Origin: an uncultured Methanocellales archaeon
GTDB lineage: Archaea > Halobacteriota > JAWCLZ01
Length of the DNA: 64,000 bases
Direction: 5' to 3'
NCBI GenBank assembly: GCA_964631075.1
Contig: CAZVYP010000001.1
Coordinates: forward strand, 26,647 to 90,646
The notes beneath the pieces were generated by a model. It did not search any database. It saw only the letters and a program-made list of their open reading frames with translations, and was not told the DNA's origin. A program made the translations under genes and the position numbers. Below, in pieces: positions 8,366-45,987 of the stretch (positions are counted from its first letter, which is position 1; each line of letters begins with the position of its first letter).

Positions 8366-8735
8366 GGGAGAGTGGAAGGGCAGCCGCCGGTGCTTCAAAG
8401 AAGTGCTGAGGAAAGTCCCCCCACCATCCGGACAGACGAGCGTGCGCAAGCACGCAGGGCGAGAGCTCTGGCTCTGGCACAGCCACGACACGTCCAGGCG
8501 AATGGGATGAGACGGCAAGCGTGAAAACGCAGAAGGAATTCAGCAATGGACTCCGAGCTAACCCGTCGACGACTCGCTTGGGAGCGATGGAACGGCGAAT
8601 CCTCGTCGGTGCAAGCCAGTAAGGGAAAAAGTCCGGATAAACCCTTGGTAGGCGCTAAGCCAAATGCTGCATGGTCCAAATCTCTGCCTGCGCGGAGGGG
8701 CCTAACCGAAGGGGGCTTATTCTCCACACTCCCGA
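8366..8735 (+). ncRNA. rnpB: RNase P RNA (archaeal type)
   Basis: ~370-nt GC-rich gap with no credible CDS. 5' GGGAGAGUGGA (8366-8376) pairs with 3' UCCACACUCCC (8723-8733) as P1. A P3-like hairpin GUGCUUC-AAA-GAAGUGC is followed by the CR-I-like GAGGAAAGUCCCCCC (8409-8422). That strand pairs with GGGGGCUUA (8711-8719) leaving one bulged nucleotide, as in helix P4. The 3' strand is preceded by ACCGAA (CR-V-like ACNRAA...GGCUUA). Confidence 0.6.
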
Positions 8736-8744
8736 TTGATATTA

Positions 8745-8820
<76 letters not shown>

Positions 8821-12161: not shown

Positions 12162-12357
12162 ATTATCCAATACGGCTTGCTCCCGAAAAATCTGCATGCA
12201 ATATTATATGTGGTGAGCAAGCCATATCTGAAAAGGATGAGGCCGCCCTGAGGCGGGTGGGACGAAGTAGGGAAGGGATCACTGCTTTTCTTTTCCAGGG
12301 TTTCGCTGACAAAAAGCTATTAATACTTATGTAACTAAAATCTTTTTTAGCGAGATT

Positions 12358-16459: not shown

Positions 16460-17215
16460 ATGGCAAATATGCAAGAACGTGTTAAGTCTGGAATTGAGGG
16501 CTTTGATGAGATCTGCGGTGGTGGTTTGATCAGGAACAGGAGCTACCTTATCGCAAGCGGAAGTGGTGCCGGCAAGACCATATTCGGAGTTCAATTTCTT
16601 TACAACGGTATTGTGCATTATGATGAAAATGGAATTTTTGTTGCCACTGAAGAGCGACCCGAGCAGATCAGAAAAGATATGCTAAACTTCGGCTGGGACC
16701 TAAAAAAGCTTGAAGAAGATAAGAAGTTCGCGATAATAGATGCCTCTGCAACAAAAATCGGAGTACCGTCACAGGAGCGCTATGTCGATGTTCGCCACTC
16801 TGATCTGGGATCGATGCTCGATCAGATAGTAAATGTTCAGGAGGAAACTAATGCAATGCGCATCGTTGTGGATTCAACAACTGCGATCGGGTTTTCCCTG
16901 AATAATGATGCCACGAGTATTCGACTGGGCATGTTGAAGCTTGGTGCAACACTCGGCATGCTGGGTTTGACATCGATCCTGATTTGCGAGGTATTGGATG
17001 AGAGACGTCCAAGCAGATTCGGGGTAGAGCAGTTCGTTACTGAAGGCACCATTGTGATGTATAACCACAGAACTGAAAACGGACGCGTGCGAAGCATTGA
17101 GATATTCAAAATGCGAGGCTCAGACCATAGCAAAAAGGTCCACCCATACGAGATCACATCTCAGGGAATCGTAGTGCACCCGCGCGATGAGAGACATATC
17201 TTAAAGGAGGGTTAA
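16460..17215 (+). CDS. KaiC-like single-domain RecA-superfamily ATPase
   Basis: GIEGFDEICGGGLIRNRSYLIASGSGAGKT (Walker A), Walker B ...IVVDS, typical of archaeal KaiC/RadA-like ATPases. Confidence 0.8.
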   Translation: MANMQERVKSGIEGFDEICGGGLIRNRSYLIASGSGAGKTIFGVQFLYNGIVHYDENGIFVATEERPEQIRKDMLNFGWDLKKLEEDKKFAIIDASATKIGVPSQERYVDVRHSDLGSMLDQIVNVQEETNAMRIVVDSTTAIGFSLNNDATSIRLGMLKLGATLGMLGLTSILICEVLDERRPSRFGVEQFVTEGTIVMYNHRTENGRVRSIEIFKMRGSDHSKKVHPYEITSQGIVVHPRDERHILKEG

Positions 17216-17217
17216 CG

Positions 17218-17895
17218 ATGAATCCTAAGAGTAAGTTAATGATCGTGGATGATGAGCGAGATGTTGTTGACTTATTTGAAGGAATGCTTTGCAATGAGTT
17301 TATAGTTATCACGGCATACAGTGGAAGATTGGCACTTAAGAAACTTATGGTGGAGAGACCTGATTTGATTTTGCTTAATATCCTCATGCCCGAGATGAGC
17401 GGTTGGGAGGTGCTGGATAAAATTAAACAAAGCAGGGAACTAAAGAATATCCCGATTATAATGCTAACGGCAGTGAGACCAGACTTCAACATCCTTGAAA
17501 AGGGTATTGATAACTACCTGATAAAACCAGTTGGTCAAAAGCAGCTCATTGACGCAATTCAGGAGACATTAAATGCTAGAAAAAAAATTGAGAAACTTGG
17601 AGAAGTTGCACTTAGTCAGGGGGTTAAAAGAGAGCTTATCGAAGAATACATGGAAAAGGCTCAACTTCTTGACAATAATGAGCGTCTTCTCTCAGTGCTC
17701 AAGCAGATTTATTTCCAGAATGAACCTTCGAGTGAAAAAAACACGGTTGAGTATGATAAAAATATGCTGAGAGAGAAGGAAAAAACGATTCGAATGCAAA
17801 AAGTGCAAATATATAGGCTCATGACTGAAATCAATAAATATGTCAAACCAGAAGAACTCTATTTATTGATGCGGAGCGAGAAGAAAACAGATTAA
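17218..17895 (+). CDS. Response regulator receiver (CheY-like REC) protein with C-terminal coiled-coil region
   Basis: KLMIVDDERDVVDLFEGML ... DLILLNILMPEMSGWEVL ... IPIIMLTA gives the phospho-acceptor Asp context. The C-terminal ~100 aa are Glu/Lys-rich helical, with no DNA-binding domain. Starts 3 nt after the KaiC stop. Confidence 0.8.
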   Translation: MNPKSKLMIVDDERDVVDLFEGMLCNEFIVITAYSGRLALKKLMVERPDLILLNILMPEMSGWEVLDKIKQSRELKNIPIIMLTAVRPDFNILEKGIDNYLIKPVGQKQLIDAIQETLNARKKIEKLGEVALSQGVKRELIEEYMEKAQLLDNNERLLSVLKQIYFQNEPSSEKNTVEYDKNMLREKEKTIRMQKVQIYRLMTEINKYVKPEELYLLMRSEKKTD

Positions 17896-17996
17896 CAAAA
17901 AAGATAGCACATGAAGAGTCAGACTTTTAAAATCAACCGTTTTTCAGATTTTTGAGTAGTAAATATTTTTAAAAAATAAAAAATAGTGATTGGAGT

Positions 17997-19331
17997 TTAT
18001 CGTCGCCTTCGGAACAATGCTAGGCAGGCAAAGGCAACTGCCAAGCTTAGAGCCTCAAATCCGGGTACGCCGGGGATAACTGGTGCTACTCCTTTAATCG
18101 TTATGGTATGTTCTGAGAATTTCTGCACGTAGACTATTATCTGAGCACCACTTGTTCCGCTTGTTATTATATATTTTGAGGTTTCATTTTTTGCTTTTGC
18201 GTTGATCAGGTCCTGAAGGTTGCCTGCCTGTGGAATTTCTTTGCCGTCTAATAAGATTTTATATCCACCTGCGAGGTCTGTGTAGATCGAAGGGGTTGTT
18301 TCAAGTACTTCTTTGTCTATGTTGAATACTATGAATTTGCCATCTGGAATGCCAGATTTCACTGATACGTTTATTGTCTTGTTTACGGTGTCCATCTTTG
18401 TTATGTTGAGCTCCACCTCTTTATAGATCACGACATCAAAGGATTTCCTGCCCTTGACGTGCAGTTCTCCACCCACGTGTCCTTTTTCAATTTCACTTTC
18501 TAACTTGGCGAGATTGTCGCGATCTCCATAGTTGCCTGCTGGCTTTGCCCTGAACATCAGCTTTCCATGCTCAAGTTTCACCGTGATTATATTGCCGCTT
18601 ACGCCGATGCTGTCGGCACCTTTGCTTGCACCCGCTATCATAAGTATGCCTTCAAATCCGCTGGTATTGAGCTTCACCGTTGTATCGCTTGTTCGATTTA
18701 TGCGAACACCGCCATTTACGGTAAGAGTGAGCGTTGCCTTGGGCGCTTCGATTTTCAGCAAACCGGTTGGATTATCATGGATGTCTATTTTCACATCCTT
18801 TTCTCCCTCTATTTTGACCACGGCGCCTTCGACAAGGCGTTTCTTTACCTCGCTGAAGATGTTTATATCTATTGAAGTAAACACAGTGGTATTGTTGAAA
18901 GAGTATTTGCTTATTTTCATGACAGAGTCATTGAAGGTGAATGAGACAAACATTCCAGTTAAATCATCGCCGGAGGTGCTGAACTTCAAATATTCTTCAT
19001 TTTTTTTCTCAGAACTCACAATGGCACCGGTACTGGCATCGACCAGAATTTCGAGCAAATGAGTTGGGCTCTCCAGTTTTATTTTCCAGACCAGCACTCC
19101 ATGCTCCTGCTTTAATTCGCTCATTTTAACAATGAAGGACTCCTTATATGTTGCCTTGGCATTTTCAATAGCAATCATATTGGCCTTTGTTTGATTAATT
19201 GCCGCAGCTAAGGCTTTGGTAGCACCAGGCTGAGGCGTTTTTTCAGTTTTCTCCGTTTTTTCGGACGCTAATGCAATTCCCATAGATGTTACCAGCATTG
19301 CCAGTATCAAAATTGTTAGTAATTTCTTCAT
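17997..19331 (-). CDS. Secreted cell-surface protein with PGF-CTERM archaeosortase sorting signal
   Basis: N-terminal signal peptide MKKLLTILILAMLVTSMGIALA. The C-terminus ...PGVPGFEALSLAVAFACLALFRRRR has the PGF motif, a TM helix and a basic tail. An (EKT)3 repeat sits near the N-terminus. Confidence 0.7.
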   Translation of the reverse strand: MKKLLTILILAMLVTSMGIALASEKTEKTEKTPQPGATKALAAAINQTKANMIAIENAKATYKESFIVKMSELKQEHGVLVWKIKLESPTHLLEILVDASTGAIVSSEKKNEEYLKFSTSGDDLTGMFVSFTFNDSVMKISKYSFNNTTVFTSIDINIFSEVKKRLVEGAVVKIEGEKDVKIDIHDNPTGLLKIEAPKATLTLTVNGGVRINRTSDTTVKLNTSGFEGILMIAGASKGADSIGVSGNIITVKLEHGKLMFRAKPAGNYGDRDNLAKLESEIEKGHVGGELHVKGRKSFDVVIYKEVELNITKMDTVNKTINVSVKSGIPDGKFIVFNIDKEVLETTPSIYTDLAGGYKILLDGKEIPQAGNLQDLINAKAKNETSKYIITSGTSGAQIIVYVQKFSEHTITIKGVAPVIPGVPGFEALSLAVAFACLALFRRRR

Positions 19332-19504
19332 CGCTTTTTTCCCTCCTCTTCATCACTTGGAAGAGTTTTCAATTTGTTGAAACAGGATAAACAATATCCA
19401 GTTATGCTTTGGGTATCGATGGCTTTCTCAGCTTCTCTTAAATCCTTTTTGATTTTATTCCACATCTCGCCAGTTTTTAGCTCTTCGAATTCCATCCTTT
19501 TGTT

Positions 19505-20479
19505 TCAGAGTTGCCCTGCCCATGCCAGTACATTTGCCAGCCTTAACAGGCTTTTATCCAGAAGCTTTTCATTTTCAGCCGAGCGCCTGAGTTCTATGCT
19601 TGTTACCCTGCCGTTTTGTAATCCAGTTATTCTGTTTCCTTTACCCTGCGAAAGCAGCTCTACAGCTTTGCTGGCGAATAAGCTGGCTAATAGCCTGCTT
19701 CTCGCTGAAGGACTACCTCCTCTCTGGGCATAGCCCAAAATGCTGAGTCGGGCCTCTGTGCCTGTGCTGGCCTCTATCTCAGCCGCGAGTTCGCGAGTAT
19801 CTCCGATTCCTTCCGCGGCAACTATTATGCCCGACTTCTTCCCCCTGGCCTGGATTTTCTTTATAGTTTTGTAGATCTCTGCTTTTTCGTATTTCTCTTC
19901 GGGAACGAGGATTATTTCAGCTCCAACAGTTATACCCACGGTCAGCGCGAGGAAGCCTCTTGTTCGGCCCATGACTTCAACTATGAAGATTCGTTCAAGG
20001 GATATTGCTGTGTCCCGTATCCTGTCAATCTGGCTGACTGCCGTATTCACTGCTGTGTCGAAGCCTATTGTTTCTTCTGTTCCATAAACATCGTTATCGA
20101 TTGTCGCTGGTATTCCTGCAATTAATGTGTCGGTTGCTTTGCTGAGTTCCAGAGCTCCTTTGAAGGCGCCGTCGCCGCCTATTACGATGAGCCCATCGAT
20201 GTCGTTTGAGTCAAGTGTTTCAGCGGCTTTTTCAATTCCCTCTTTCTTTTTAAACTCGGGACATCGACAGGTATGCAGAATTGTGCCGCCAAGCTGTATT
20301 ATTCCCCCAACTGAGCGGGGAGTAAGAGGTCTGAACTTGTTGGTTAGCAGTCCCTCCCAGCCTCTTTCAAATCCTAATACACGGAGCTTTTTTGAATGGG
20401 CAATGCGCACTGCGGCTCGAATGGCAGCGTTCATTCCAGGGGAGTCTCCACCGCTTGTTACTATCCCTATTGTTTTCAA
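19505..20479 (-). CDS. pfkA: 6-phosphofructokinase, PfkA family
   Basis: MKTIGIVTSGGDSPGMNAAIRAAV ... IVIGGDGAFKGA ... GIPATIDNDV are PFK-A family motifs. GGDGA suggests an ATP-type enzyme, but the second specificity position is Ala, so the phosphoryl donor is not certain. Confidence 0.8.
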   Translation of the reverse strand: MKTIGIVTSGGDSPGMNAAIRAAVRIAHSKKLRVLGFERGWEGLLTNKFRPLTPRSVGGIIQLGGTILHTCRCPEFKKKEGIEKAAETLDSNDIDGLIVIGGDGAFKGALELSKATDTLIAGIPATIDNDVYGTEETIGFDTAVNTAVSQIDRIRDTAISLERIFIVEVMGRTRGFLALTVGITVGAEIILVPEEKYEKAEIYKTIKKIQARGKKSGIIVAAEGIGDTRELAAEIEASTGTEARLSILGYAQRGGSPSARSRLLASLFASKAVELLSQGKGNRITGLQNGRVTSIELRRSAENEKLLDKSLLRLANVLAWAGQL

Positions 20480-20552
20480 TTATTACTCCTCACCGTATCA
20501 CGTTTTTTAAAACAAAAGAATATTGCCCTTTCAATTTATATTAATTGTCCCG

Positions 20553-21197
20553 CTACTTCTCAGGTCTCAGCACTGACGATATTGTGGAGAAGGCGCTTTT
20601 CACTACAAGGTATGTGCCTCCAATAACGATCACCGCCGGTGCTGTCAGCCCAAGAGTTGCCGCGCTAATTCCAGCGGAAACCAGAATAGCCGTGTCGTGC
20701 CGGGTCAGAAATGCCGCCAGTTTCTTCATTGTTGAGGGACTGACGTCTATTGCGTCTGTCTCAAGCATAACATTGCCTTTTTGAAAAACCTTTACCCAGC
20801 CGCTTTCCTCCGAGACCAGCACTGCAGTTATATTTTCATTTTGCTCCGTGATGCCCTTTGCTGCTGCATGTCTGGTACCAAACCCATGGAAGGTTGAACT
20901 CTTCAGAATCCTCGCGCCATATGCAATTATTTCTCCACCGGGAGTCAGATAAACGGCGCCATCGATAGAAGCAAGTTTTTCCAGCACAACATCCATGCCT
21001 TTTGTTAGCAGAGAGCCGGCAAGGGTAATTTGTGGATACTGACATTCATATGTGCCCTGCACATTCTCTCTTGGGGCTATTACGAAGAGAGCTCCCTTTT
21101 TGTCTTTAGCAAGCTTCTTGGCAAGGGCGAGAACTCTTTGCATTACCTCTTCTATATCAGTTTCTTCTTGAGTTTTTGCTGCTGCGTTTTGTTCCAT
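20553..21197 (-). CDS. dacZ: Diadenylate cyclase (DAC/DisA_N domain), DacZ-like c-di-AMP synthase
   Basis: DAC signature DGAVYL ... and GTRHAAAKGITE (the DGA and RHR motifs of DisA_N). C-terminal hydrophobic segment. Confidence 0.65.
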   Translation of the reverse strand: MEQNAAAKTQEETDIEEVMQRVLALAKKLAKDKKGALFVIAPRENVQGTYECQYPQITLAGSLLTKGMDVVLEKLASIDGAVYLTPGGEIIAYGARILKSSTFHGFGTRHAAAKGITEQNENITAVLVSEESGWVKVFQKGNVMLETDAIDVSPSTMKKLAAFLTRHDTAILVSAGISAATLGLTAPAVIVIGGTYLVVKSAFSTISSVLRPEK

Positions 21198-21232
21198 TGC
21201 ATTTTATGAATAGCATTTCATCTCATAAAAAT

Positions 21233-22501
21233 TTATTCTATCCAGAACTCATCGCCATTTTTTGGAGCAATTGCTTCAACATCGAAGTTTTCCTCTATCC
21301 ATGAGGCAAAATTCGGTGCGCTATCGCTGTGAACGATGAATATCTTTTCCACTCCTCGCTCAATAAATTTTTTTACCCATCGTTTAAGCTCGGCATCACC
21401 GCAGTGAGATGAGAAATCGAAGTACTCCACCGGCATTTTGAGCTCAACAATGGCACCTTTCAGGTCTATTCTCCCATGCTCGAGCGCTGCCCTGCCATTG
21501 GTGTCTTCCGCCTGGTAGCCTGTTAACAGGAGGCTGTTTTTTTGATTGCCGAAAAGTTTTGAGAGATAGTGAAGCACCGGTCCTCCATTTAGCATTCCTG
21601 CTGTTGTCACGATTATGGCTGGAGAACTCAGTAAATCAGAGCGATTTTCCGGTTTAACTGGAACTGCATTGTCAAATGCAAGCTTAAATTTCTCCGGTTC
21701 TTTCAAGTGTTCCAGATGGTTTAGCAGATATTCGCACACTTCTCTGCCCATTCCATCGAGATATGGGGTTAAGCCGTAGCTATGCAGGAGCATCAAAATT
21801 TCCTGGGTTCTGCCTATTGCAAAGCATGGAACTAATGCGAGGCCGCCTTGTTCTAAAGTTTGCCTTATTCTTTCTATGAACTGTTTTTCAAGCAAATCTC
21901 TAGGCGGGTGATCTCTGCTGAAGTAAGTCCCCTCGATCATCAAAATGTCTGCTTCTGGAATATCTTCGTCGCATCCACTTAGCAGTCTTGTTTCACGGGT
22001 GTTAAAGTCGCTGGTGTAAAAAATTTTCTTCTCCCCCTCCAAAAATATACTTGCACTTCCAGGTATATGTCCGGCGTCGTAAAGCGAGGCTGTAAAGCCG
22101 TTTACTTCAAAAGCATCTCTGTATTTCGTTATTTTTGTTCTCTCTCTAACCTGCTGTATGTCCCTGCTTTCATAAGGCGCCAGAGAGTGCTTTCTCTCGG
22201 TGATTTCAAGCATATCCTGAGCGAGGAGAATGGAAAAATCTCTGGAGAGCGAGGTCATGTATACCGAGGGGTTTAAATCCATGATATTCGGCAGCAAGCC
22301 ACAGTGATCCAGGTGACCGTGGGATATAATAATATCAGTTGGCCTCAAGCCGTTCATTGGATACTGCACTGGCTCGGTTGGCTTTAATCCATAGTCAAGC
22401 AAAACATCGTTTATCAAAATCGCTGATCTCCCGATTTCCATGCACCCTCCTAAAAAGCGAATTTTTAGAGCCATCGAAAGGATTATAACCAATACCTGCA
22501 T
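21233..22501 (-). CDS. Metallo-beta-lactamase-fold beta-CASP ribonuclease (aCPSF2-like)
   Basis: IISHGHLDHCG motif (HxHxDH), ~420 aa, the size of archaeal KH-less beta-CASP RNases. Confidence 0.65.
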   Translation of the reverse strand: MQVLVIILSMALKIRFLGGCMEIGRSAILINDVLLDYGLKPTEPVQYPMNGLRPTDIIISHGHLDHCGLLPNIMDLNPSVYMTSLSRDFSILLAQDMLEITERKHSLAPYESRDIQQVRERTKITKYRDAFEVNGFTASLYDAGHIPGSASIFLEGEKKIFYTSDFNTRETRLLSGCDEDIPEADILMIEGTYFSRDHPPRDLLEKQFIERIRQTLEQGGLALVPCFAIGRTQEILMLLHSYGLTPYLDGMGREVCEYLLNHLEHLKEPEKFKLAFDNAVPVKPENRSDLLSSPAIIVTTAGMLNGGPVLHYLSKLFGNQKNSLLLTGYQAEDTNGRAALEHGRIDLKGAIVELKMPVEYFDFSSHCGDAELKRWVKKFIERGVEKIFIVHSDSAPNFASWIEENFDVEAIAPKNGDEFWIE

Positions 22502-22678
22502 ATAATAATTGCTTTACGAGAGAAAGCTATATATGCGATGAGTGCATTCGGCATGCGATGCCATTGAGAGGTTAACTTCTATTGAAAGGTGAGCCTTTGT
22601 TTGGGGATAAGTACAGTACAAAAAGAGCATTTTGCATCTTAGTTGAGAATCTGCTTGCTGAAATTGTAATCAGAAGGA

Positions 22679-22794
22679 GGGCTCGTAGCTCAGTTAGGCA
22701 GAGCATCTGGCTTTTATTCTCTGGACCATCGCGAGTAGCGAGTGGAAGCCTAGAAGATACCAGGTGGCCGGGGGTTCAAATCCCCCCGAGCCCG
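22679..22794 (+). tRNA. tRNA-Lys (anticodon TTT) with ~42-nt intron
   Basis: Acceptor GGGCUCG/CGAGCCC, D-arm GCUC-AGUUAGGCA-GAGC, anticodon stem UCUGG/CCAGG. Mature loop CUUUUAA is obtained by removing 42 nt after position 37. T-arm GGGGG-UUCAAAU-CCCCC, discriminator G. Confidence 0.6.
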
Positions 22795-22813
22795 TTTTAA
22801 TGGAGGGGAAAAA

Positions 22814-23056
22814 TTGGCCAAGAAGTTTAGCGTGCTCGACCACGAATATGTTCCTAAACATGAAATATTAAGTGAGAAAGAGATTGATGAGATTTTGAAG
22901 AGATATCAATGTGAAAAGGGTCAGCTCCCCCTTATTCGAACGAGTGATCCTGCCGTGAAGGAGATAGGAGCCAAAAGTGGAGATGTGATAAAGATAACAA
23001 GAAAAAGCCTGACTGCAGGCAAAGCGATTGCTTATCGCTATGTGGTTGAGGCATAG
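22814..23056 (+). CDS. rpoH: DNA-directed RNA polymerase subunit H (Rpo5)
   Basis: 80-aa protein with the typical RpoH sequence ([22 protein letters not shown]...) at the head of the rpo operon. Confidence 0.9.
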
Positions 23057-23066
23057 AGGTGTAATA

Positions 23067-26000
23067 ATGCTGAATAGAAGGATTCTGGCAGAATCATACT
23101 TCACCAGAGCTAAGATTTCCCAGCACCACGTTGATTCATTCAATGCCTTCATCGACTATGGCTTGCAGAAGGTAATTGACGAGCAGGAGAAAATTGGCAC
23201 AGATATAGCCGAAGATAATATTGCTGGCATTGATGAGGGAGTACACATAAAGCTTGGCAAAATAAGCGTTGGCAAGCCTGTTGTCAGAGAGGCAGACGGC
23301 TCAGTTGAGCCGCTTTATCCCTCTGAAGCAAGGCTCAGAAACATCACTTATGCTGCGCCGATTTATTTGCAGATGAGCATAGTTCGCGGCAACAGCGAGA
23401 CCGAGCCCCAGGATGTTGAAATTGGAATGCTCCCAATAATGGTCTATTCGAGAGTGTGCAATCTATCTGGTTTATCCGCGCAGGAATTGACAGAGCAGGG
23501 CGAAGACCCCATGGATCCCGGCGGCTATTTTATTATCAACGGCACCGAGCGCGTGGTAATGAGCTTGGAAGACCTCGCGCCCAACAAGATTCTGGTGGAG
23601 TACAACGAGCGCTACGGGGAGAAAATTGAGGTGGCGAAGGTGTTTTCGCAAAGGCGAGGCTATAGAGCGCTTGTAATAGTCGAGCGCGGCAGAAATTCTA
23701 TTCTTGAGGTTTCATTCCCTTCCATTGCAGGCAGAATTAATTTCATCACCCTCGTTCGCGCTCTGGGTCTTGAGAGCGACAAGGACATTGTCGGAGCGGT
23801 CAGCGATGACCCCGAGATAGTGAAGTTCATGCTTGAGAACATAGAAGAAGCTGAAGTCGAAACTGCTGAGGAGGCGCTGGATAAGATCGGGAAGCTCGTG
23901 GCGACCGGTCAGGCAAGGGAGTACCAGAAGAAGCGGGCAAATTATATTCTGGATCGCTATCTGCTACCGCATCTCGGCAATGACGAGTCAAGCCGGCTCG
24001 CAAAAGGCCATTACCTGGGAAGAATGGCTGAAGCGTGCTTCGAGCTTGCACTTGGAAGGAGAGGAGAGGATGACAAGGATCACTATTCCAACAAGCGCAT
24101 CAAACTAGCGGGCGATCTGATGGAGGACCTGTTCAGAGTTTCCTTCAACCGCCTGACACAAGATATTAAGTACCAGCTTGAGAGAGCTAGCATGCGCAAC
24201 AGAGAGCTAAACGTACTCACCGCAGTCAGAGCGGATGTCTTGACCGAGAGGCTTACCCATCCCCTCGCAACCGGCAACTGGGTTGGCGGCAGGACAGGTG
24301 TCTCTCAGCTTCTCGACAGGATAGATCATATGGCCATGCTTTCGCATCTGCGAAGGGTAATTTCACCGCTATCAAGGGCTCAGCCGCATTTCGAGGCACG
24401 AGACCTGCATCCCACTCAGTGGGGCAGAATATGCCCGGCTGAAACTCCTGAAGGTCCCAATTGCGGGCTTGTGAAGAACTTCGCCCAGCTCGTAGAACTC
24501 TCAACAGGGCTTGAGAACCAGGAAGAGATCAAAGCTGTTCTAAATCTGCTTGGAGTGCAGCCTATCGGCAAGGAACACGGAAGTAAGTATAAGGAAGAGG
24601 ATTCAAAAGGAGAGTATTTGTTTAGCTTAAAACTGGATTATGAGCAGCATCTGCAAGACGGTCCCGTCAGCCTTGCCATTAAAACTGCTTTTGAAAGTAA
24701 TAAATCACCCCTGACAGCTAGCGCTCAGATATCTCAAAAAGGTGCAAAGAACTGGATAATAAATGATGGAAATAAAAGATATTTAGTCGAAGATGCTAGC
24801 ACTCAACTAAACATATATGAGATAGGCAAAGCAAGGGTTTTTGTAAATGGCGCGCTTGTTGGCTATCACGACAAGCCCAGAGAGCTAACGAGAGAGCTCA
24901 GGGGCAAGCGGAGGAGCGGAGCTCTGCCTATTCAGGTTAATGTGGCATTCTTTGAGCGGACGAAAGAAGTTGTGATAAACTCTGACAGCGGGAGAGCCAG
25001 AAGACCTCTCATTGTTGTCGAGAACGGCAAGACCAAGGTTATAGACATCGATCTTGAGCGCCTGATGAAAAAAGAAATTACTTTTGAAGATATTGTCAGA
25101 CAGGGGTTAATAGAATATCTTGATCCCGATGAAGAGGAGAATGCCTTTATCGCAGTTAGGGAAGAGGATATAAAGCAGGAGCATACTCATCTTGAGATCG
25201 ACCCCTCGCTGGTGCTTGGCATCTGCGCTGGAATGGTGCCTTATCCCGAGCATAATGCTTCACCCAGAAATACGATGGGTGCCGGAATGATCAAGCAATC
25301 GCTTGGAATGAGCACCGCTAACTGGAGGCTCAGACCTGATACTCGATCGCACATGCTGCACTATCCACAGCTTGCGATTGTGAGAACTCAAACCAATGAT
25401 GCAATAAAGTTTGATTCAAGACCTGCGGGGCAGAATTTCGCAGTTGCTGTGCTATCGTATGAAGGTTATAACATTGAAGATGCCCTGGTGATAAACAGAG
25501 GCTCTATTGAGCGCGGGCTTGGAAGAAGCCACTTCTTCAGGACCTACGAGGGTGAGGAGAGACGCTACCCTGGCGGCCAGGAAGACTTGTTCGAAGTACC
25601 GGACGCAGAAGTCAGAGGCGCCAGGGGCGCGGAGGCTTATGCCTATCTGGATGAAGATGGTCTGGTTAATCCTGAAACAGATGTCGGGCCGAACGATGTG
25701 CTTATCGGCAAGACGAGTCCACCCCGCTTCCTTGAAGAGCCGACTGACCTCGGAGGTATTACACCACAGGGTAGAAGGGAGACCTCGGTTACAATGCGCT
25801 CCAATGAGAAGGGTATCGTTGATACTGTGATTTTGACGGAAGGAGAGAACGGATCGAGACTTGTGAAAGTGCGCACGAGGGATCAGAGAATACCCGAGCT
25901 TGGAGACAAATTTGCCTCCCGTCACGGGCAGAAAGGGGTTGTTGGACTTATCGCATCGCAGGAGGATTTACCGTTCACGGAGCAGGGCATTGTTCCGGAT

Positions 26001-26639
26001 CTTGTGATTAACCCCCATGCAATTCCATCACGCATGACAGTCGGACACGTGCTTGAGATGATAGGTGGCAAGGTTGGCGTATTTGAAGGTAGAAGAATAG
26101 ATGCAACTGCCTTCTCTGCGGAGAAGGAAGAGGATATGAGAAGGGCTCTGATGAAATTTGGCTTCTCTCATACAGGCAGAGAGATAATGTATGACGGTGT
26201 TACCGGTGAGAGAATTGAGGCAGATATTTTCGTTGGAGTGATCTATTATCAGAAGCTGTATCACATGGTCGCAAGTAAACTGCACGCGAGGTCACGAGGA
26301 CCTGTCCAGGTTCTTACCAGACAGCCTACCGAGGGCAGAGCACGTGAAGGTGGTTTGAGATTTGGAGAGATGGAGAGAGATGTGCTTGTCGGGCATGGTG
26401 CAGCTCTGGCTTTAAAGGAAAGATTGCTTGACGAAAGCGATAAGGTGGTGGAGCTTATCTGCAACCACTGCGGCATGGTGGCAACTCACGATAAAAGAAG
26501 GAATTTCACCTACTGCCCGAGCTGTGGCGCAGAAACAGATATATACCCGGTTGAGATGAGCTATGCCTTCAAGCTCCTTCTGGATGAGATGAAGGCACTC
26601 GGAATTGCTCCACGATTAGAACTTACAGATGCGGTGTAG
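23067..26639 (+). CDS. rpoB: DNA-directed RNA polymerase subunit B, unsplit (B''+B' in one ORF)
   Basis: One continuous frame spans B''-type N-terminal motifs through B'-type C-terminal motifs ([27 protein letters not shown]-terminal CxxC...CxxC zinc ribbon). Start placed at ATG 23067 (MLNRRIL) after a GAGGTG RBS, not at the ORF-track start 23028. Confidence 0.9.
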
Positions 26640-26652
26640 GGAGGTTTTTCAA

Positions 26653-29277
26653 ATGACAAGTCCAAAGCGAATTGGCAAAATAAGATTTGGCTTGCTTTCA
26701 CCAAAAGAGATCCGAAAGATGAGCGTCACGAAGATCATAACAGCGGACACATATGATGACGATGGCTACCCGATCGAGATGGGCCTCATGGATCCCAGGC
26801 TCGGGGTAATAGATCCAGGTCTGAGATGCAAAACCTGCGGAGGGAGACCTGGCGAGTGCCCCGGTCACTTTGGACACATTGAGCTTGCTGCTCCGGTGAT
26901 CCACGTTGGCTTTGCTCGATTTATCCGGAAGATTTTGAAGATCACCTGCAGGAAATGCGGACGACTGCTGCTGCCGGAGGATGTTAAAAAGTATTATCTT
27001 AAGAAGATGGATGAGATGGCGAAAATAGGCGAGAGCGTTGACGACGTCATCAGAGATGTTTTCAAAGACGCAAGAAGAGCCAACGTCTGCCCGCACTGCA
27101 ATGAAACACAGCTTGAAATTAAATTCGAAAAGCCAACTGGCTATATAGAAGAGGGACACAAGCTTATGCCTGCCGACGTTCGCGATCGACTTGAAAGAAT
27201 TCCGGATGATGATGTAAGGGTCTTCGGCATGGATCCGAAGAATGCCAGACCTGAATGGATGGTTCTCACCGTGCTGCCGGTGCCGCCTGTAACTACCCGT
27301 CCGTCTATCACTCTTGAGAGCGGTCAGCGATCGGAAGACGACCTCACGCATAAGCTGGTGGATATTATCAGGATAAACCAGAGATTTCAGGAGAACCGCG
27401 AAGTCGGTGCGCCTCAGCTTATTATCGAGGACCTGTGGGAGCTACTGCAGTATCATATAACCACTTTCCTGGATAATGAGGTATCAGGCGTTCCGCCTGC
27501 CAGGCATCGATCCGGTAGACCGCTTAAAACTCTTTCTCAGCGTCTTAAAGGTAAGGAAGGCCGCTTCCGGGGCTCGCTCTCCGGCAAGCGCGTGAACTTC
27601 TCAGCGCGCACGGTAATTTCCCCTGATCCAAACTTAAGCATAAACGAAGTTGGCGTACCCGTTAGAATCGCCAAGGAAATGACGGTTCCAGTTCGAGTCT
27701 CTGCAAGAAATATTGAGGATGCAAAGGAATACGTGCGGAGGGGCCCTGAGAATCATCCAGGTGCAAACTATGTTACCCGCCTTGACGGGAGAAGGGTTAA
27801 GGTGGCAGAGAAAAATTGTGAAGAGCTTTCTCAAAGCCTTGAGATTGGATGGATAGTTGACAGACAGCTCAGAGACGAGGATATAGTGCTCTTCAACCGT
27901 CAACCATCTTTGCACCGAATGAGCATAATGTCGCACAGAGTCAAGGTAATGCCCTATAAGACTTTCCGACTCAATCCCGCGGTTTGCCCGCCATATAACG
28001 CCGATTTCGACGGCGATGAGATGAACATGCACGTGCCGCAAACCGAAGAAGCGCGTGCCGAGGCAAAGATTTTGATGATGGTGGAAGAAAACATCCTTTC
28101 ACCAAGATTCGGAGGACCGATCATAGGCGGGATACACGACCACATCTCAGGCTTATACCTGCTCACAAGAGGAGAGGCGATATTTTATGAGAACAATGCT
28201 CTTGAGCTGCTCAGAAAATCTAAGATAAAGAAGCTTCCAAAACCGGCTGGAATGAAAGATGAGAAGCCTTACTGGACTGGAAAGCAGATCTTCAGCGCAC
28301 TCCTGCCAAAGAATTTGAACCTTAGCTATAAAGCAGAGGTATGTGATGATTGCGAGACCTGTAAAGCAGAAGCCTGCGAGCGAGATGCATACGTGGTAAT
28401 AAAGAACGGACAGCTAAAGCACGGCACTATCGACGAAAAAGCACTTGGAGCTTTTACAGGTCACATTCTTGATAGAATAATAAAAGAATACGGAGCAGAA
28501 GCCGCTAAGGACTTCCTGGACAATGCCACGAGACTGGCGATCAGAAGCATAATGCACTTCGGCTTCAGCTTTGGCATAGACGACGAGGACATTCCCAAGG
28601 AAGCACAGAATCAGATCAGCGAGATCGTTGAGAAAGCCGAGGAAAAAGTTCATGCACTAATCAAGGCATACGAAGCAGGCGAGCTTGATGCATTACCGGG
28701 AAGAACGCTTGACGAGACCCTTGAGATGAAGATCATGCAGGAGCTCGGTAGAGCCAGGGACAACGCCGGTAATATTGCCGGGCGCCACCTTGGACTTGAT
28801 AACTCCGCGGTAATAATGGCGGTCTCAGGTGCCCGGGGATCTATGCTGAACCTCACCCAGATGTCCGCCTGTGTAGGACAGCAATCGGTGCGAGGAGAGC
28901 GAATTTCACGCGGGTATGAATCCAGAACCCTGCCTCACTTCAGAAAGGGCGATAGAGGAGCGGAGGCAAGAGGCTTTGTCAAGTCCAACTATAAGAGCGG
29001 ATTATCTCCAACTGAGTTCTTCTTTCACGCAATGGGCGGCAGAGAGGGCCTTGTTGACACAGCAGTTCGAACCTCGCAGTCGGGTTATTTGCAGCGGCGG
29101 CTGATTAATGCTTTGCAGGACTTGGAAGTCAAATACGACGGCACCGTTAGAGAGACTGGTGGCACAATTGTGCAGTTCACCTATGGTGAAGATGGTATAG
29201 ATCCAAGCAAGAGTGATTATGGAAAATCTGTGAACGTTAAAAGAATAGTTGAAGGCACTTTAGGGGAGAGGACATAA
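26653..29277 (+). CDS. rpoA1: DNA-directed RNA polymerase subunit A' (Rpo1N)
   Basis: N-terminal zinc-binding region ([24 protein letters not shown]) and catalytic [10 protein letters not shown] motif. Start at ATG 26653 (MTSPKRIG) after GGGAGG. Confidence 0.9.
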
Positions 29278-29279
29278 GC

Positions 29280-30473
29280 ATGAACGTCAGCACACTAGAG
29301 AAAAAGCTTGCAAGCGTAAACCTTCCTCAAAACATTAAGGAGGAAGTAGTTGAAGAACTGCGCGATGCTGAGATCAGCAGTGAGCAGCTTGATGAAATTC
29401 TGCAAAAAACAGTTGAGGCTTATGAGAGGGCAAAGGTCGAGCCCTGCGAAGCGGTCGGAACCGTGGCCGCGCAATCAATAGGCGAGCCCGGAACTCAAAT
29501 GACGATGAGAACTTTCCACTACGCCGGCGTGGCTGAAATCGATGTCTGCCTTGGCTTACCAAGACTGATCGAGATACTCGACGCAAGAAAAGAGCCATCA
29601 ACGCCTATGATGAACATCAAGCTAAAAGGCGAGTATGCCAGAGACAGAGACAAAGTCAAAGAAATCGCATGGGAAATAGAGGCAACAAACATCCTTGACT
29701 TGGGCAGCATTGAGACCGAGCTCGATAAAATGAAAGTGACGATAAAGCTCAATGAGCGCATACTCGAGCAGAGAAAAATTGAAGCGGAGTACGTCCGCAA
29801 GAGAATACAGGATGGAATCGATCTTGAGGTAAAGCTCGAAGGTAACACTCTGCATTTTGCTCCGGAGAAATCTTCTTACAGAGGGCTGCTGCAGCTGATT
29901 GAAAAAGTAAAGCGCATCACAATAAAAGGTTTTGACGGAATCAAAAGAGTTGTGATAAGAAAAGAGGGAGAAGAATACACGCTGTATACTGAAGGTTCCT
30001 CTCTTGAATACCTTTTTTATCCAGAAAAAGCAGTTAAGGCAAAAAAAATCACAAGCGAATCAGCGAAGATCATAGCAGATGGTGTAGACCCGAGCAGAAC
30101 AACCTCGAATAACATAAATGAAATAGCAGATGTGCTGGGAATAGAAGCAGCGAGAAGCGCGGTAATTCACGAAGCCACAGAAACACTCAAAGAGCAGGGA
30201 CTGGATGTTGACATTCGCCATATAATGCTTGCCGCAGATATCATGACGGTTGATGGCAAGGTAAAGCAAATCGGCAGACACGGCGTTGCGGGCGAAAAAG
30301 CCAGTGTCTTCTCAAGAGCAGCTTTCGAAGTAACGGTGAACCACCTGCTTGATGCAGCGGTTCGCGGAGACATAGATGAACTTGCAGGTGTAACTGAAAA
30401 TGTAATCGTCGGCCAGCCAATCCAGCTTGGCACAGGAAATGTTACGCTCATAGCAAAGCATATGGAAAAATAG
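29280..30473 (+). CDS. rpoA2: DNA-directed RNA polymerase subunit A'' (Rpo1C)
   Basis: 397 aa with trigger-loop and jaw-region conservation ([17 protein letters not shown]). Follows rpoA1 immediately. Confidence 0.9.
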
Positions 30474-30488
30474 AATGGAGGCGAGAAA

Positions 30489-30779
30489 GTGGACCTAGAG
30501 CGCGCACTACAAAATACAATTAAAACCGGTAAGGTCAAAATAGGAACAAAACAGACAATTAAAGCCGCTAAAAATGGAGCGCCAAAGCTCGTGATAATAG
30601 CTAGAAATTGCCCGCCAGATGTAAGAAAACAGATTGAAGCAACGAAGATACCTGTGTATGATTACTCCGGTCAGAGCATCGATTTAGGAGCGGCATGCGG
30701 CTTGCCGTACACCATCGCAGCGATGGCTATAATCGAGCCTGGAGAATCGGAGATCTTAAGTCTGCTCAGAGGTGCATAG
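30489..30779 (+). CDS. rpl30e: 50S ribosomal protein L30e
   Basis: LERALQNTIKTGKVKIGTKQTIKAAKNGAPKLVIIARNCPPD is the L30e/L7Ae fold. GTG start. Confidence 0.85.
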   Translation: MDLERALQNTIKTGKVKIGTKQTIKAAKNGAPKLVIIARNCPPDVRKQIEATKIPVYDYSGQSIDLGAACGLPYTIAAMAIIEPGESEILSLLRGA

Positions 30780-42608: not shown

Positions 42609-43224
42609 ACCCCCAGCATATTAGAGAGATTTTGCACTCGAAGTAACGGCTTATTCTATAATAAATATTGTGGTTAACGTTTGCTAAGACCTTTGTTTCT
42701 CCTGCAGATATTTTTATTTTAATTTTTAATAAAAATAAATTAAGACTTTCCTTTGAAAAATAAAGCTTTAGAGCTTTTATTCGTATGTTCAATTTTTTCA
42801 ATAATTAAAATAGCTGATCTGCAATACCCCTTAATTTCCACTCGAGTTGTTCTGTTAACTCCAACCCCTATATTTCAAATGGAGATTCTGTTACTTAGAT
42901 TGTCATTCTTCTTTAACTTAAACTTACATAAATATAAGATTGGTGTTTTGTTATACAATTACAAATATATATATGTTTCTATTATTTTGTGATAATAGAT
43001 TAATAATAGATATACATCACATCTATTCCCAACGCTATTAAAAATGTAGACTTGCAAATGAAAAATAGGGGGCGGGTGCGCACGATATAGTTAGAGCAGC
43101 AATCAGAAGTCAATTCAGGGCATCACATTTTTAACACATAAACGGGTTCCCTAAGCGTAAAAATTATATAGAAGTGTTCGTCTATTATTAATTTTGAGAT
43201 CCAAAAATTACTGGAGGTTTTAAA
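42609..43224. promoter_or_regulatory. Putative replication origin (oriC): AT-rich unwinding region with an ORB-like element
   Basis: ~600-bp non-coding, very AT-rich spacer directly upstream of cdc6. At 42835-42846, TTTCCACTCGAG matches the reverse complement of the archaeal mini-ORB core (GTTTCCACTGGAA) at 10/12 positions. A G-string (gggggcgggtg) lies at ~43069. Only one ORB-like copy was recognised. Confidence 0.4.
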
Positions 43225-43501: not shown

Positions 43502-44095
43502 GTGAAAGCTATGAACGAAAAGCCCGATGAGAAAGAAAAAAACGAAACAAATGAGACCGCGCAGGGGGAAAGCGCAAAAATTAAAACCGAGCTTGACGAG
43601 AAAATTAAATTGATTGAGGAAAATATAAAGCTCCTTGAAGAAAAAAACAGGATGCTGGAGGAAAAAAATAAGCTTGAAAACGAATATCAAAAACAGCTTC
43701 TATATCTGAGAGCAGACTATGAGAATCTAAAGAAATTAGCGGCAAGAGAAAAGGCAGAGTACATCAAATCCACAAACGAAGATCTGGTTAAAAAGCTGCT
43801 GCCGGTGCTCGACAGCTTCGAATGTGCATTAAAAATTGAAGAAATAAGGGAAAATAAAAAAATTAAAGAAGGAATAGAAATGCTCTACCGCCAGCTTTAT
43901 GAAATACTTGAAAAAGAAGGATTAAAACCTGTAGTAGCGGTTGGAGAGAAGCTCGATCCATTCAAACACGAGGCGCTCACGCAGGTACAGAACAGCGAAG
44001 TTGAGGAAGATATAGTGCTTGAGGAGTTTCAAAAAGGTTATACTTTCAACTCGAAAGTAATTCGCACTTCTAAAGTTAAAGTTTCAAAGAGGTGA
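43502..44095 (+). CDS. grpE: Nucleotide exchange factor GrpE
   Basis: Coiled-coil N-terminus plus the GrpE core ([42 protein letters not shown] ... [16 protein letters not shown]). Confidence 0.85.
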
Positions 44096-44100
44096 TATGT

Positions 44101-45987
44101 ATGGCAAAGATAATTGGAATCGATCTTGGAACAAGCAACTCTGCCGCTGCGGTTATGATGGGCGGCAGACCGACGATAATCCCCAGTGCTGAGGGCATAA
44201 CTCTCGGTGGTAAAGCCTTCCCTTCGTATGTAGCTTTTACAAAGGATGGGCAGATGATTATCGGCGAGCCTGCGAGAAGGCAGGCGGTGAGCAATCCTGA
44301 GGGAACCCTGACCGCTTTCAAGAGAAAGATGGGCCAGGATTACAGGTACAGCATTCACGGTAAGCAATATTCTCCTCAGGAGCTCTCGGCTTTTCTGCTG
44401 AGAAAGATTAAGCAGGATGCAGAGGCTTTTCTTGGAGAAAAAGTCGAAAAAGCTGTTATAACCGTGCCTGCTTATTTCAACGACAATCAGAGGCAGGCGA
44501 CCAAAGATGCGGGCAGGATCGCGGGACTGGATGTTGTTCGAATTATTAATGAGCCTACCGCTGCGAGTCTTGCTTACGGACTTGACAAAGCTGGCAAAGA
44601 TCAGCGGATAATGGTCTTCGATCTGGGCGGTGGGACTCTTGACGTTACAATTCTCGAATTCGGAGGAGGAGTATTTGAGGTTAAAGCCACCTCGGGTGAT
44701 ACGCAGCTCGGTGGCACCGATATGGACAATGCAATAATAGACCATGTTGCCACGCAATTCAAGCGAGATACAGGTATCGATCTCAGAAATGATAAAATGG
44801 CGGTGATGCGTCTTAAAGAAGCTTCTGAAAAGGCAAAGATAGAGCTCTCAACTTCTCTCACAACTGACATCAACCTGCCCTTCATATCCGCGGATCAAAC
44901 AGGTCCAAGACATCTTACAATGAGCCTTACCCGAGCTAGATTAGAGGAGCTCATCGCGCCGATTATCGAGCGCTGCAGGGCACCCATGAGGCAGGCAATT
45001 GTGGATGGAAAGCTTGAACCGACGGCTATAGATAAGGTAATTCTTGTTGGAGGTCCAACGCGCATGCCTGTTGTGCAGCGCTTCGTGGAAGAATATATGG
45101 GCAAAAAAATTGAGAGAGGAGTCGATCCGATGGAGTGCGTCGCTATGGGCGCGGCGATTCAGGGCGGTGTGCTTGCAGGTGAAGTAAAGGACCTTGTGCT
45201 GTTGGACGTCACTCCACTGTCCCTGGGAATTGAAACCCTCGGCGGGGTGTTTACAAAGCTGATAGAGAGAAATACCACTATACCGACTAGGAAGAGCCAG
45301 CTCTTTACCACTGCTGCAGACAATCAAACCAGCGTTGAGATACACGTATTGCAGGGAGAGAGACCCATGGCAATGGATAACACCACTCTGGGGAGATTCC
45401 ATTTAATCGGCATTCCACCTGCGCCTAGGGGTATCCCGCAGATAGAGGTTACATATGATATAGATGCAAATGGAATTATGAACGTCTCAGCGAAAGACCT
45501 TGCAACCGGGAAGGAGCAAAGGATTACCATAACCGCGCCGCACAAGCTCTCGGAAGAAGAGATACAGCGCAAGGTTAAGGAAGCCGAGAAATACGCAGAG
45601 GAAGACAAAAAGCGAAAGGAAAAAGTGGAGATTAAGAATCAGGCAGAGTCCTTAATCTACACATCCGAAAAAACATTGAAAGACGCGGGAGATAAGATTA
45701 GCAGTGAACTGAAGGACAGGGCAACTAAGGCAATTGAAAACCTCAGGGAAGCTGTGAAGAGCGATGATTTAGCGAAGATAAAAGCGGAGATTGAAACCGC
45801 TACGAAGGTGCTCCACGAAATCGCGAGCATAATGTATCAGCAAGCAGCCTCGCAACAACAGCAGACAGAACAGCAGCAGGCAGGAGGTCAGGCACATGCA
45901 GAGGGTTCTGGTGCTGACAGCGGAAAGAAAACTGTTGACGCCGATTATAAAGTTGTGGATGAGGAAGAAGATAAGGAGAAGAAGTAA
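44101..45987 (+). CDS. dnaK: Molecular chaperone DnaK (Hsp70)
   Basis: [30 protein letters not shown] signatures. Start at ATG 44101 after GAGGTGAT; ATGA-type coupling with grpE. Confidence 0.95.

Follow-up and report, generated by a model that had tools for sequence, protein, structure and literature searches.

An RNA polymerase (RNAP) B subunit that appears to carry a foreign domain in its middle is encoded by an uncultured Methanocellales archaeon, in the 64-kb stretch of DNA analyzed here (the window, whose positions serve as coordinates unless another contig is named). The rpoB gene (Rpo2; 23067-26639, + strand) is unsplit and specifies 1190 amino acids plus a stop, without interruption. 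The B″-equivalent part (amino acids 1-504; 23067-24578, +) comprises the protrusion, lobe and fork (Pfam Rpb2_1, Rpb2_2 and Rpb2_3) and the B′-equivalent part (amino acids 587-1190; 24825-26639, +) external 1 and 2, hybrid-binding/wall and anchor/clamp (Rpb2_4 to Rpb2_7). Between them lies an inserted segment of about 246 nucleotides (amino acids 505-586; 24579-24824, +; boundaries ± about 2 codons), ending in LNIY-EI. The favored reading, given a probability of about two in three, is that this segment is a foreign domain gained on the terminal branch leading to this genome and now tolerated as a passenger in what is the subunit's most permissive loop.

The host protein is most likely a functional, unsplit and otherwise ordinary archaeal B subunit, judging by its sequence. 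Pfam Rpb2 domains 1-7 are found in canonical order in one open reading frame (ORF) with E-values from 7.5e-133 to 5.8e-07 and no internal stop, in agreement with a first-pass annotation that had described a single uninterrupted 1190-residue frame with B″-type and B′-type regions, and whose quoted peptide and coordinates are accurate. The stop-to-stop frame spans 23013-26636 with the ATG at 23067, and Rpb2_3 (fork) and Rpb2_4 (external 1) fall at amino acids 414-476 and 591-652. The Thermococcus RNAP subunit B (4qiw_B) matches both halves with 1415 bits (phmmer, PDB chains). The catalytic motif and the C-terminal CxxC…CxxC (zinc) motif are intact in the translation, and the branch of this RpoB in a neighbor-joining tree is of normal length (0.048, against 0.037 for its sister). 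A sequencing error hiding a stop and start between B″ and B′ had been raised as a concern; the Logan assembly of run SRR8539650 contains a 13,876-bp contig with 0 mismatches to window positions 16644-30519, which encodes the same 1190-residue protein and likewise has no stop/start at that point.

Position of the Insert and Its Absence from Relatives

Matches of the window RpoB to solved structures are broken in two, with residues 7-502 aligning to 4qiw_B 20-512 and residues 587-1189 to 4qiw_B 518-1122. The B subunits of Pyrococcus and Sulfolobus give the same two-piece match (phmmer, PDB), and amino acids 503-586 therefore have no counterpart in solved unsplit B subunits. An 82-codon gap at amino acids 505-586 (nucleotides 24579-24824), between the fork (Rpb2 domain 3) and external 1 (Rpb2 domain 4), appears both in an alignment with 38 other unsplit RpoBs (MAFFT) and in a codon alignment with L086 (the P0002 locus) and L006, its nearest two relatives. 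The proposal that some 80 residues are extra relative to Thermococcales and crenarchaeal B subunits is borne out by both the PDB matches and the alignment gap.

The closest proteins in a collection of 5.8 billion sequences (P0002-P0005, one of them labelled "Methanocellales archaeon") are 89-90% identical to the window RpoB. They are 1107-1108 amino acids long, 82-83 shorter than the window protein, and all are unsplit. Together with L006 they share the insert-free junction QPIGKAH-ARARVFVNG, where the window reads QPIGKEH[GSKYK...NIYEI]GKARVFVNG, so that the GK codons after the insert (24825-24830) stand in place of the ancestral AR. The codon alignment with L086 and L006 contains one clean gap, and the would-be insert-less junction reads ...CAC|GC(N)AGGGCAAGG.... 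Nucleotide identity between the window and L086 is 82%, falling to 56% at third codon positions. On these alignments the insertion is placed after a divergence of genus scale and, since the closest orthologs are unsplit and insert-free, the unsplit state predates the insert.

A wider comparison gives the same picture. The stretch between flanking anchors measures 27-45 amino acids in 117 of 120 unsplit RpoBs, and the three independent outliers are P0021 (64 amino acids), the window RpoB (113) and P0018 (130). A profile of the inserted module (described below) matches the window RpoB only, and none of the 119 other unsplit RpoBs retrieved has the insert. The original observation would have been undone had all unsplit subunits shared the extra residues, and they do not. 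The outlier P0018 (1352 amino acids, from a JGI metagenome) is an unsplit RpoB with large inserts unrelated to the module, of about 99 and 29 amino acids after the positions equivalent to window residues 262 and 269. A further insert of about 100 amino acids, also unrelated to the module, lies in the junction loop, where the window protein has its own.

A Domain Family Inside Unrelated Proteins

The insert alone, taken as an 83-residue segment (24582-24830) and searched with phmmer against 1.84 billion cluster representatives, retrieves 210 proteins below an E-value of 1e-3, of which 23 lie below 1e-10, with a best E-value of 8e-22. A profile built from these matches finds a unit of about 75 amino acids in 1-7 copies in 149 of the 150 best proteins. 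This profile, built from foreign matches only, recovers the window RpoB with an E-value of 1.6e-29 over profile positions 2-79 of 80 (hmmsearch), and the module core (amino acids 509-586; 24591-24824, +) is a full-length match to the family. The consensus is YLFSL..YKqyLK.G.vs.eLRkaFe.N...LS..AkISK.d...WeI.DG.k.Y.Ie.tGt.LNIY, and the near-invariant residues L13, F14, L24, F37, L44, W58, D62, Y67, L76 and Y79 (83-residue numbering) are all present in the insert.

AlphaFold2, supplied with the family alignment, predicts a β-α-α-β4 topology (one strand, two helices and a four-stranded meander) with a mean predicted local distance difference test score (pLDDT) of 91.7 and a predicted template modeling score (pTM) of 0.80. 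Strands are predicted at 11-17, 49-54, 57-62, 65-71 and 75-82, and helices at 18-23 and 31-39. On this prediction the insert comprises a single, complete domain of about 75 amino acids that folds by itself. Copies of the module are 25-50% identical to each other and conserved at the protein level, and their alignment is too variable for pattern scanning.

No significant counterpart of the insert or module was found in Pfam-A, NCBIfam or the PDB, and comparison with the SBHM/BBM2 insert modules of RNAP revealed no likeness of fold. Word-indexed protein searches returned 0 matches with the insert and 1 with the module alignment. A PepSY identity was considered, as the insert is PepSY-like by eye and a neighboring 444-residue gene product has a faint PepSY match, and was rejected because the insert has no Pfam match at E≤1. 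A literature search found no account of an unsplit Methanocellales-like RpoB, of inserts in archaeal RpoB or of the YLFSL...LNIY module.

The proteins that carry the module have little else in common. Among 95 of them, 68 different Pfam families were detected (E<1e-5), none in more than 3 proteins. They include HEAT and pentapeptide repeats, CARDB and PEGA surface domains, HAMP/dCache sensors and SpoIIE, as well as permeases and ATPases of the ATP-binding cassette (ABC) type, an Hsp70-type ATPase, TIR, AAA, short-chain dehydrogenases/reductases (SDR) and the TATA-binding protein (TBP). Cluster look-ups gave names and taxonomy for 4 hosts only: two Altiarchaeales, one Halobacteriota archaeon (a 3459-residue CARDB protein) and one Poribacteria bacterium. 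The best match of all, P0121, is a TBP with two tandem N-terminal modules, found on two archaeal contigs from different samples or metagenomes (L082 4450-5463; L083 137-1150) near a gene resembling that for the small subunit of DNA polymerase D. Another archaeal contig with a module-bearing protein (661 amino acids) also has an MCM helicase gene with an intein (L087 538-4263; Intein_splicing between two MCM halves).

In two hosts the module can be seen to interrupt a catalytic domain. P0153 is the OppD ABC ATPase of an ordinary opp operon (L084 6001-7398) and has 465 amino acids, compared with 319 for the adjacent OppF. This paralog aligns to P0153 residues 7-75, 163-190 and 278-462, and modules occupy residues 72-148 and 198-272. 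Because the OppF alignment breaks twice, these are two separate insertions in the ABC domain, between Walker A and LSGGQ. In P0210 the SDR profile is split once, residues 1-207 matching profile positions 8-192 and residues 275-323 matching positions 211-260. That the same module interrupts other folded enzymes, OppD twice and SDR once, supports its reading as a passenger in RpoB.

Composition and Mode of Insertion

The insert differs from its surroundings in base composition. Its GC content is 37.6%, compared with 50.5% for the rest of rpoB, and it forms the lowest-GC 255-nucleotide stretch of the gene. GC content at third codon positions (GC3) is 0.318. Among 42 long ORFs of the window it averages 0.50 ± 0.04 and never falls below 0.41, and a value as low as that of the insert is reached in only 0.3% of all 83-codon windows. 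These low values point to a recent, unameliorated gain from an AT-richer source, and indicate that the insert is probably of recent foreign origin. In three other host genes the GC3 of the module is close to that of the gene, and the copies there are accordingly taken to be older. A low-GC stretch elsewhere in the window (42700-43000, 24% GC) was considered as a related foreign island and rejected; it is intergenic, upstream of grpE (43502-44095), dnaK (44092-45987) and a dnaJ-like gene (from about 46045), and looks like the ordinary promoter region of grpE-dnaK.

Could the insert remove itself, or move as DNA? An intein was rejected, as there is no N-terminal Cys/Ser nucleophile or C-terminal His-Asn, the next residue is Ala, and 82 amino acids fall short of the Hint fold (about 130 at minimum). 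The family alignment shows no intein-type residue conservation, and the insert ends in ...NIYEI(GK). A bulge-helix-bulge (BHB) intron was also rejected, with 2 weak pairings found against a background of 1.5 ± 1.7 at 200 control positions, in a segment that is open and conserved as coding sequence. The palindrome expected of a miniature inverted-repeat transposable element (MITE) or of the Rickettsia palindromic elements (RPEs) is missing from the insert DNA, which is less structured than its shuffles (z +1.53; 186 of 200 shuffles fold at least as well). Terminal inverted repeats were likewise discarded: the YLFS and LNIY codons are complementary at 10 of 11 positions, which is the chance level for 250 nucleotides, and this complementarity is absent from the module copies of L082, L084 and L085. 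A repeat at the junctions (ATCGGCAAGG/ATAGGCAAAG, both encoding IGK) matches at 8 of 10 nucleotides and is compatible with microhomology, without reaching significance. No second copy was found in the 64-kb window (blastn, tblastn and profile searches), in 88 loci or on five other module-bearing contigs.

These tests bear on the idea that the module is a selfish in-frame domain cassette, that is, a mobile family spreading into the surface loops of arbitrary genes in the manner of RPEs, which are a precedent for in-frame mobile inserts (PMC10969869). Extreme host diversity (68 Pfam families in 95 proteins), insertions in the catalytic domains of OppD (two sites) and SDR as well as in RpoB, a range of named hosts that extends from Altiarchaeales and Halobacteriota to Poribacteria, a phylum of bacteria, an insert present in one and absent from other close RpoB orthologs, foreign composition and the RPE precedent itself would all suit such an element. 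Against it, no signature is seen at the DNA level: the folding z-score is +1.53, the 11-nucleotide inverted match is at chance and missing from other copies, the junction repeat is weak, and neither the window nor the five other module-bearing contigs hold a second copy. The copies moreover share only 25-50% identity, as members of a long-established domain family would, and those in other hosts have the GC3 of the gene around them. A selfish cassette is consequently considered improbable. A related and somewhat broader possibility is that the module is a horizontally spreading, self-folding passenger domain of a hitherto unrecognized kind that colonizes surface loops in frame in archaea and bacteria, essential proteins included (RpoB, an OppD ATPase, an SDR and the TBP N-terminus), the rpoB copy having been caught before amelioration; this is offered as a speculation and is itself rather unlikely.

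A composition unlike that of the flanks, in a single metagenome-assembled genome (MAG) from one sample, might also suggest an assembly or binning artefact in which the assembler spliced a foreign fragment into rpoB. This explanation is very improbable. Two different assemblies are identical over 13.9 kb, the junctions lie exactly in frame with rpoB sequence restored on both sides and about 2 codons lost, and the insert spans a whole domain, beginning with its linker and closing with its final strand. The junction string shared at 8 of 10 nucleotides is too short to mislead a k-mer assembler.

Split and Unsplit RpoB Among Relatives

Rpo2 is split in many Euryarchaeota (PMC5300874). To locate the split, the rpoB region was translated and stops sought in 80 related loci from GTDB species representatives, Halobacteria not being among them. 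In 24 split loci the B″ ORF aligns to window RpoB residues 1 to about 500/505 and the B′ ORF starts at about residue 583-589. These loci belong to Methanosarcina, Methanohalobium, ANME-2, GoM-Arc1, Methanoperedens, Methanothrix, Methanoflorens-like archaea (bog_38, fen_29) and genomes labelled Methanocellaceae. B″ ends just past ...GV.P(I/L), in some loci (as in Methanosarcina) after an added acidic tail that can reach about 60 amino acids, and the start of B′ directly precedes (A/T)R(V/I)F(V/L)NG. As the B″ and B′ ends flank the position of the insert, the insert sits exactly in the split junction loop, and the first-pass annotation was right to place it at the B″/B′ junction of split relatives; for halophiles its placement rests on the published statement that many Euryarchaeota have a split Rpo2. 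In one Methanocellaceae-labelled MAG (L017 551-3940) the B″ part itself lies in two overlapping ORFs, from an assembly frameshift error or in a pseudogene.

The location invites an explanation in which the segment is a scar of fusion (a B″ tail plus intergenic spacer retained after re-fusion) or a self-removing element such as an intein or BHB intron. It lies at the split site, and B″ tails of Methanosarcina reach about 60 amino acids. Unsplit relatives are nevertheless insert-free, the segment resembles neither B″ tails nor the DNA of any locus, and it is homologous to an independent domain family. A self-removing element is opposed by the lack of a His-Asn end, the following Ala, a size of 82 amino acids that is too small, and BHB pairings at background (2 against 1.5 ± 1.7). 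Readings of this kind are already contradicted, and hardly any weight is left to them. The earlier suggestion of a linker that goes with the fused state likewise fails, as the four closest orthologs are unsplit without it and the insert reproduces in full a domain that unrelated proteins also carry.

A neighbor-joining tree of 66 RpoBs (1084 columns, 100 bootstraps), which covers a single gene and omits Halobacteria, Methanomicrobiales, Archaeoglobi and class I methanogens, pairs the window RpoB with P0002 and joins this pair to L006, P0003 and P0005, all unsplit, at 100% bootstrap. This clade is sister (63% bootstrap) to a 100%-supported clade with both states, in which an unsplit subclade (L016, L013, P0014, L021) stands beside a split one (bog_38, L060, L037, L058, L029). 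The unsplit P0018 pairs with split L014 and L017 at 99%, and the unsplit P0020 with split Methanosarcinaceae (L053, L057), also at 99%. Syntropharchaeia and ANME-1 are unsplit. Fitch parsimony counts at least 5 changes between split and unsplit states on this tree. In split forms the stop and start overlap (ATGAGTGA in L033, TTG...TAG in L014), so a one-base insertion or deletion would convert one state into the other.

Whether the unsplit state is ancestral or results from re-fusion had been posed as a question by the first-pass annotation. Either direction would require several events, and the tree leaves the polarity undecided; the repeated changes of state that it implies contradict a single ancient split. 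The insert was also proposed as a phylogenetic marker, for which it is weak, being found in this genome alone in a subunit whose split state flips at least 5 times among the 66 RpoBs. The insert is neither a fusion linker nor a lineage marker.

A Tolerated Passenger in a Permissive Loop

The favored reading supposes a single in-frame insertion of about 246 nucleotides of compositionally foreign DNA, on the terminal branch to this genome, which would have landed in the solvent-exposed linker from fork to external 1. A fragment coding for the domain probably entered by illegitimate recombination, and selection would then have favored events that stayed in frame and did not disrupt the protein. 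Exposure of the loop is expected because the B″ and B′ ends of split enzymes must be exposed there. It also appears to be the most permissive site of the subunit, as relatives cut the chain there, hang acidic B″ tails of 0-60 amino acids from it, or carry unrelated inserts in it. The module would then stand out from the enzyme's outer surface, like a bead carried on its loop, while the enzyme keeps working, a tolerated passenger that is presumably neutral or mildly modulatory.

Lineage-specific inserts of bacterial RNAP often gain functions, and by analogy the module could be an adaptive accessory domain, kept by selection as a surface to which a factor, a ligand or a cellular structure docks or through which it exerts regulation. 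It is well folded (as predicted) and conserved, and its presence in TBP as well as RpoB places it in two basal transcription proteins, TBP being the best match and known from two independent contigs. In RpoB, however, the module is confined to a single genome and the four nearest relatives lack it, its unameliorated GC3 implies a very recent arrival, and the operon shows no obvious partner gene. As the hosts represent at least 68 unrelated Pfam families, two transcription proteins among them are expected by chance. An adaptive role is therefore unlikely.

Several points weigh against the tolerated-passenger reading. The two assemblies apparently come from the same sample, so that their agreement does not amount to support at the level of reads. 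No donor was found: the closest module is about 52% identical, and scans of metagenome and viral contigs turned up no close relative. The AlphaFold model of the full-length RpoB, supplied with RpoB rows only, is poor, with a pLDDT of 63 overall and below 50 for the insert, and because of this it is silent on the geometry of insert and polymerase. Retention of the insert in the mature enzyme is presumed from the gene, and the module may have a functional role, given the two tandem copies fused before TBP in another archaeon.

Gene Neighborhood and Other Features of the Window

The rpoB gene is the second of an operon ordered rpoH-rpoB-rpoA′-rpoA″. The first gene, rpoH (Rpo5; 22814-23056, +), is an 80-residue ORF 10 nucleotides upstream of rpoB; PF01191 (RNA_pol_Rpb5_C) is called on its equivalent in L081, a contig corresponding to window positions 16644-30519. 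Downstream, rpoA′ (Rpo1 N-terminal part; 26629-29277, +) is an 882-residue ORF that overlaps the end of rpoB by 11 nucleotides, with Rpb1 domains 1-5 called on the L081 equivalent. It is followed by rpoA″ (Rpo1 C-terminal part; 29280-30473, +), a 397-residue ORF with PF04998 on the L081 equivalent.

Directly upstream of rpoH lies a gene for tRNA-Lys(UUU) (22679-22794, +), with a 42-nucleotide intron at the canonical anticodon-loop position. It scores 58.4 bits with Rfam, and ARAGORN finds it in intron mode and not by default. The archaeal RNase P RNA (8368-8731, +; 177 bits) is followed by a convergent tRNA-Val(UAC) (8746-8820, -). At 12211-12284 (+) an Rfam match to DUF3800-X RNA, a small RNA motif of unknown function, scores 58.6 bits against a gathering score of 38.2.

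Significance and Comparison with Known Systems

To our knowledge, domain insertions in the catalytic subunits of archaeal RNAP have hardly been documented. Unsplit rpoB is already known, as are lineage-specific inserts in RNAP subunits of bacteria. What is new is that these features combine in the B subunit of an archaeon, at the split junction and with a foreign origin that is very recent, along with a source in an undescribed and promiscuous domain family that interrupts other enzymes. The B″/B′ junction loop would accommodate an entire foreign domain in addition to a break in the chain, and so suggests itself as a natural place to tag or engineer archaeal RNAP. Through the insert an uncharacterized family of domains, confidently predicted to fold, also comes to light inside ordinary enzymes of archaea and bacteria; how do such modules move? 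Finally, sister clades of Methanocellales-like and Methanosarcinales-like archaea disagree in the "split rpoB" character, which is often treated as the product of one ancient event and should not be used uncritically as a phylogenetic marker.

Among known systems, the split Rpo2 (B″/B′) of, for example, Methanosarcina acetivorans (PMC5300874) involves the same loop, its ends flanking the position of the insert. The window chain differs in being continuous, without a stop/start, and those of its nearest relatives are continuous too. RPEs and other in-frame intragenic MITEs (PMC10969869) similarly place some 150-250 bp in frame at fold-compatible sites in unrelated and even essential genes. They are palindromic DNA repeats with many similar copies per genome, whereas the window insert is non-palindromic, stands alone in the 64 kb and is preserved at the level of the protein fold rather than of DNA. 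Inteins of archaeal replication and transcription proteins are also extra in-frame segments in essential information-processing proteins, but the window insert lacks splicing residues, has one third of the minimal intein size and occupies a variable loop instead of a conserved active-site motif. The insertion domains of bacterial RNAP (βi4/i9 and β′ Si3; SBHM/BBM2 modules) resemble it in that each is a discrete folded domain, restricted to a lineage and set in a surface loop with the conserved core undisturbed.

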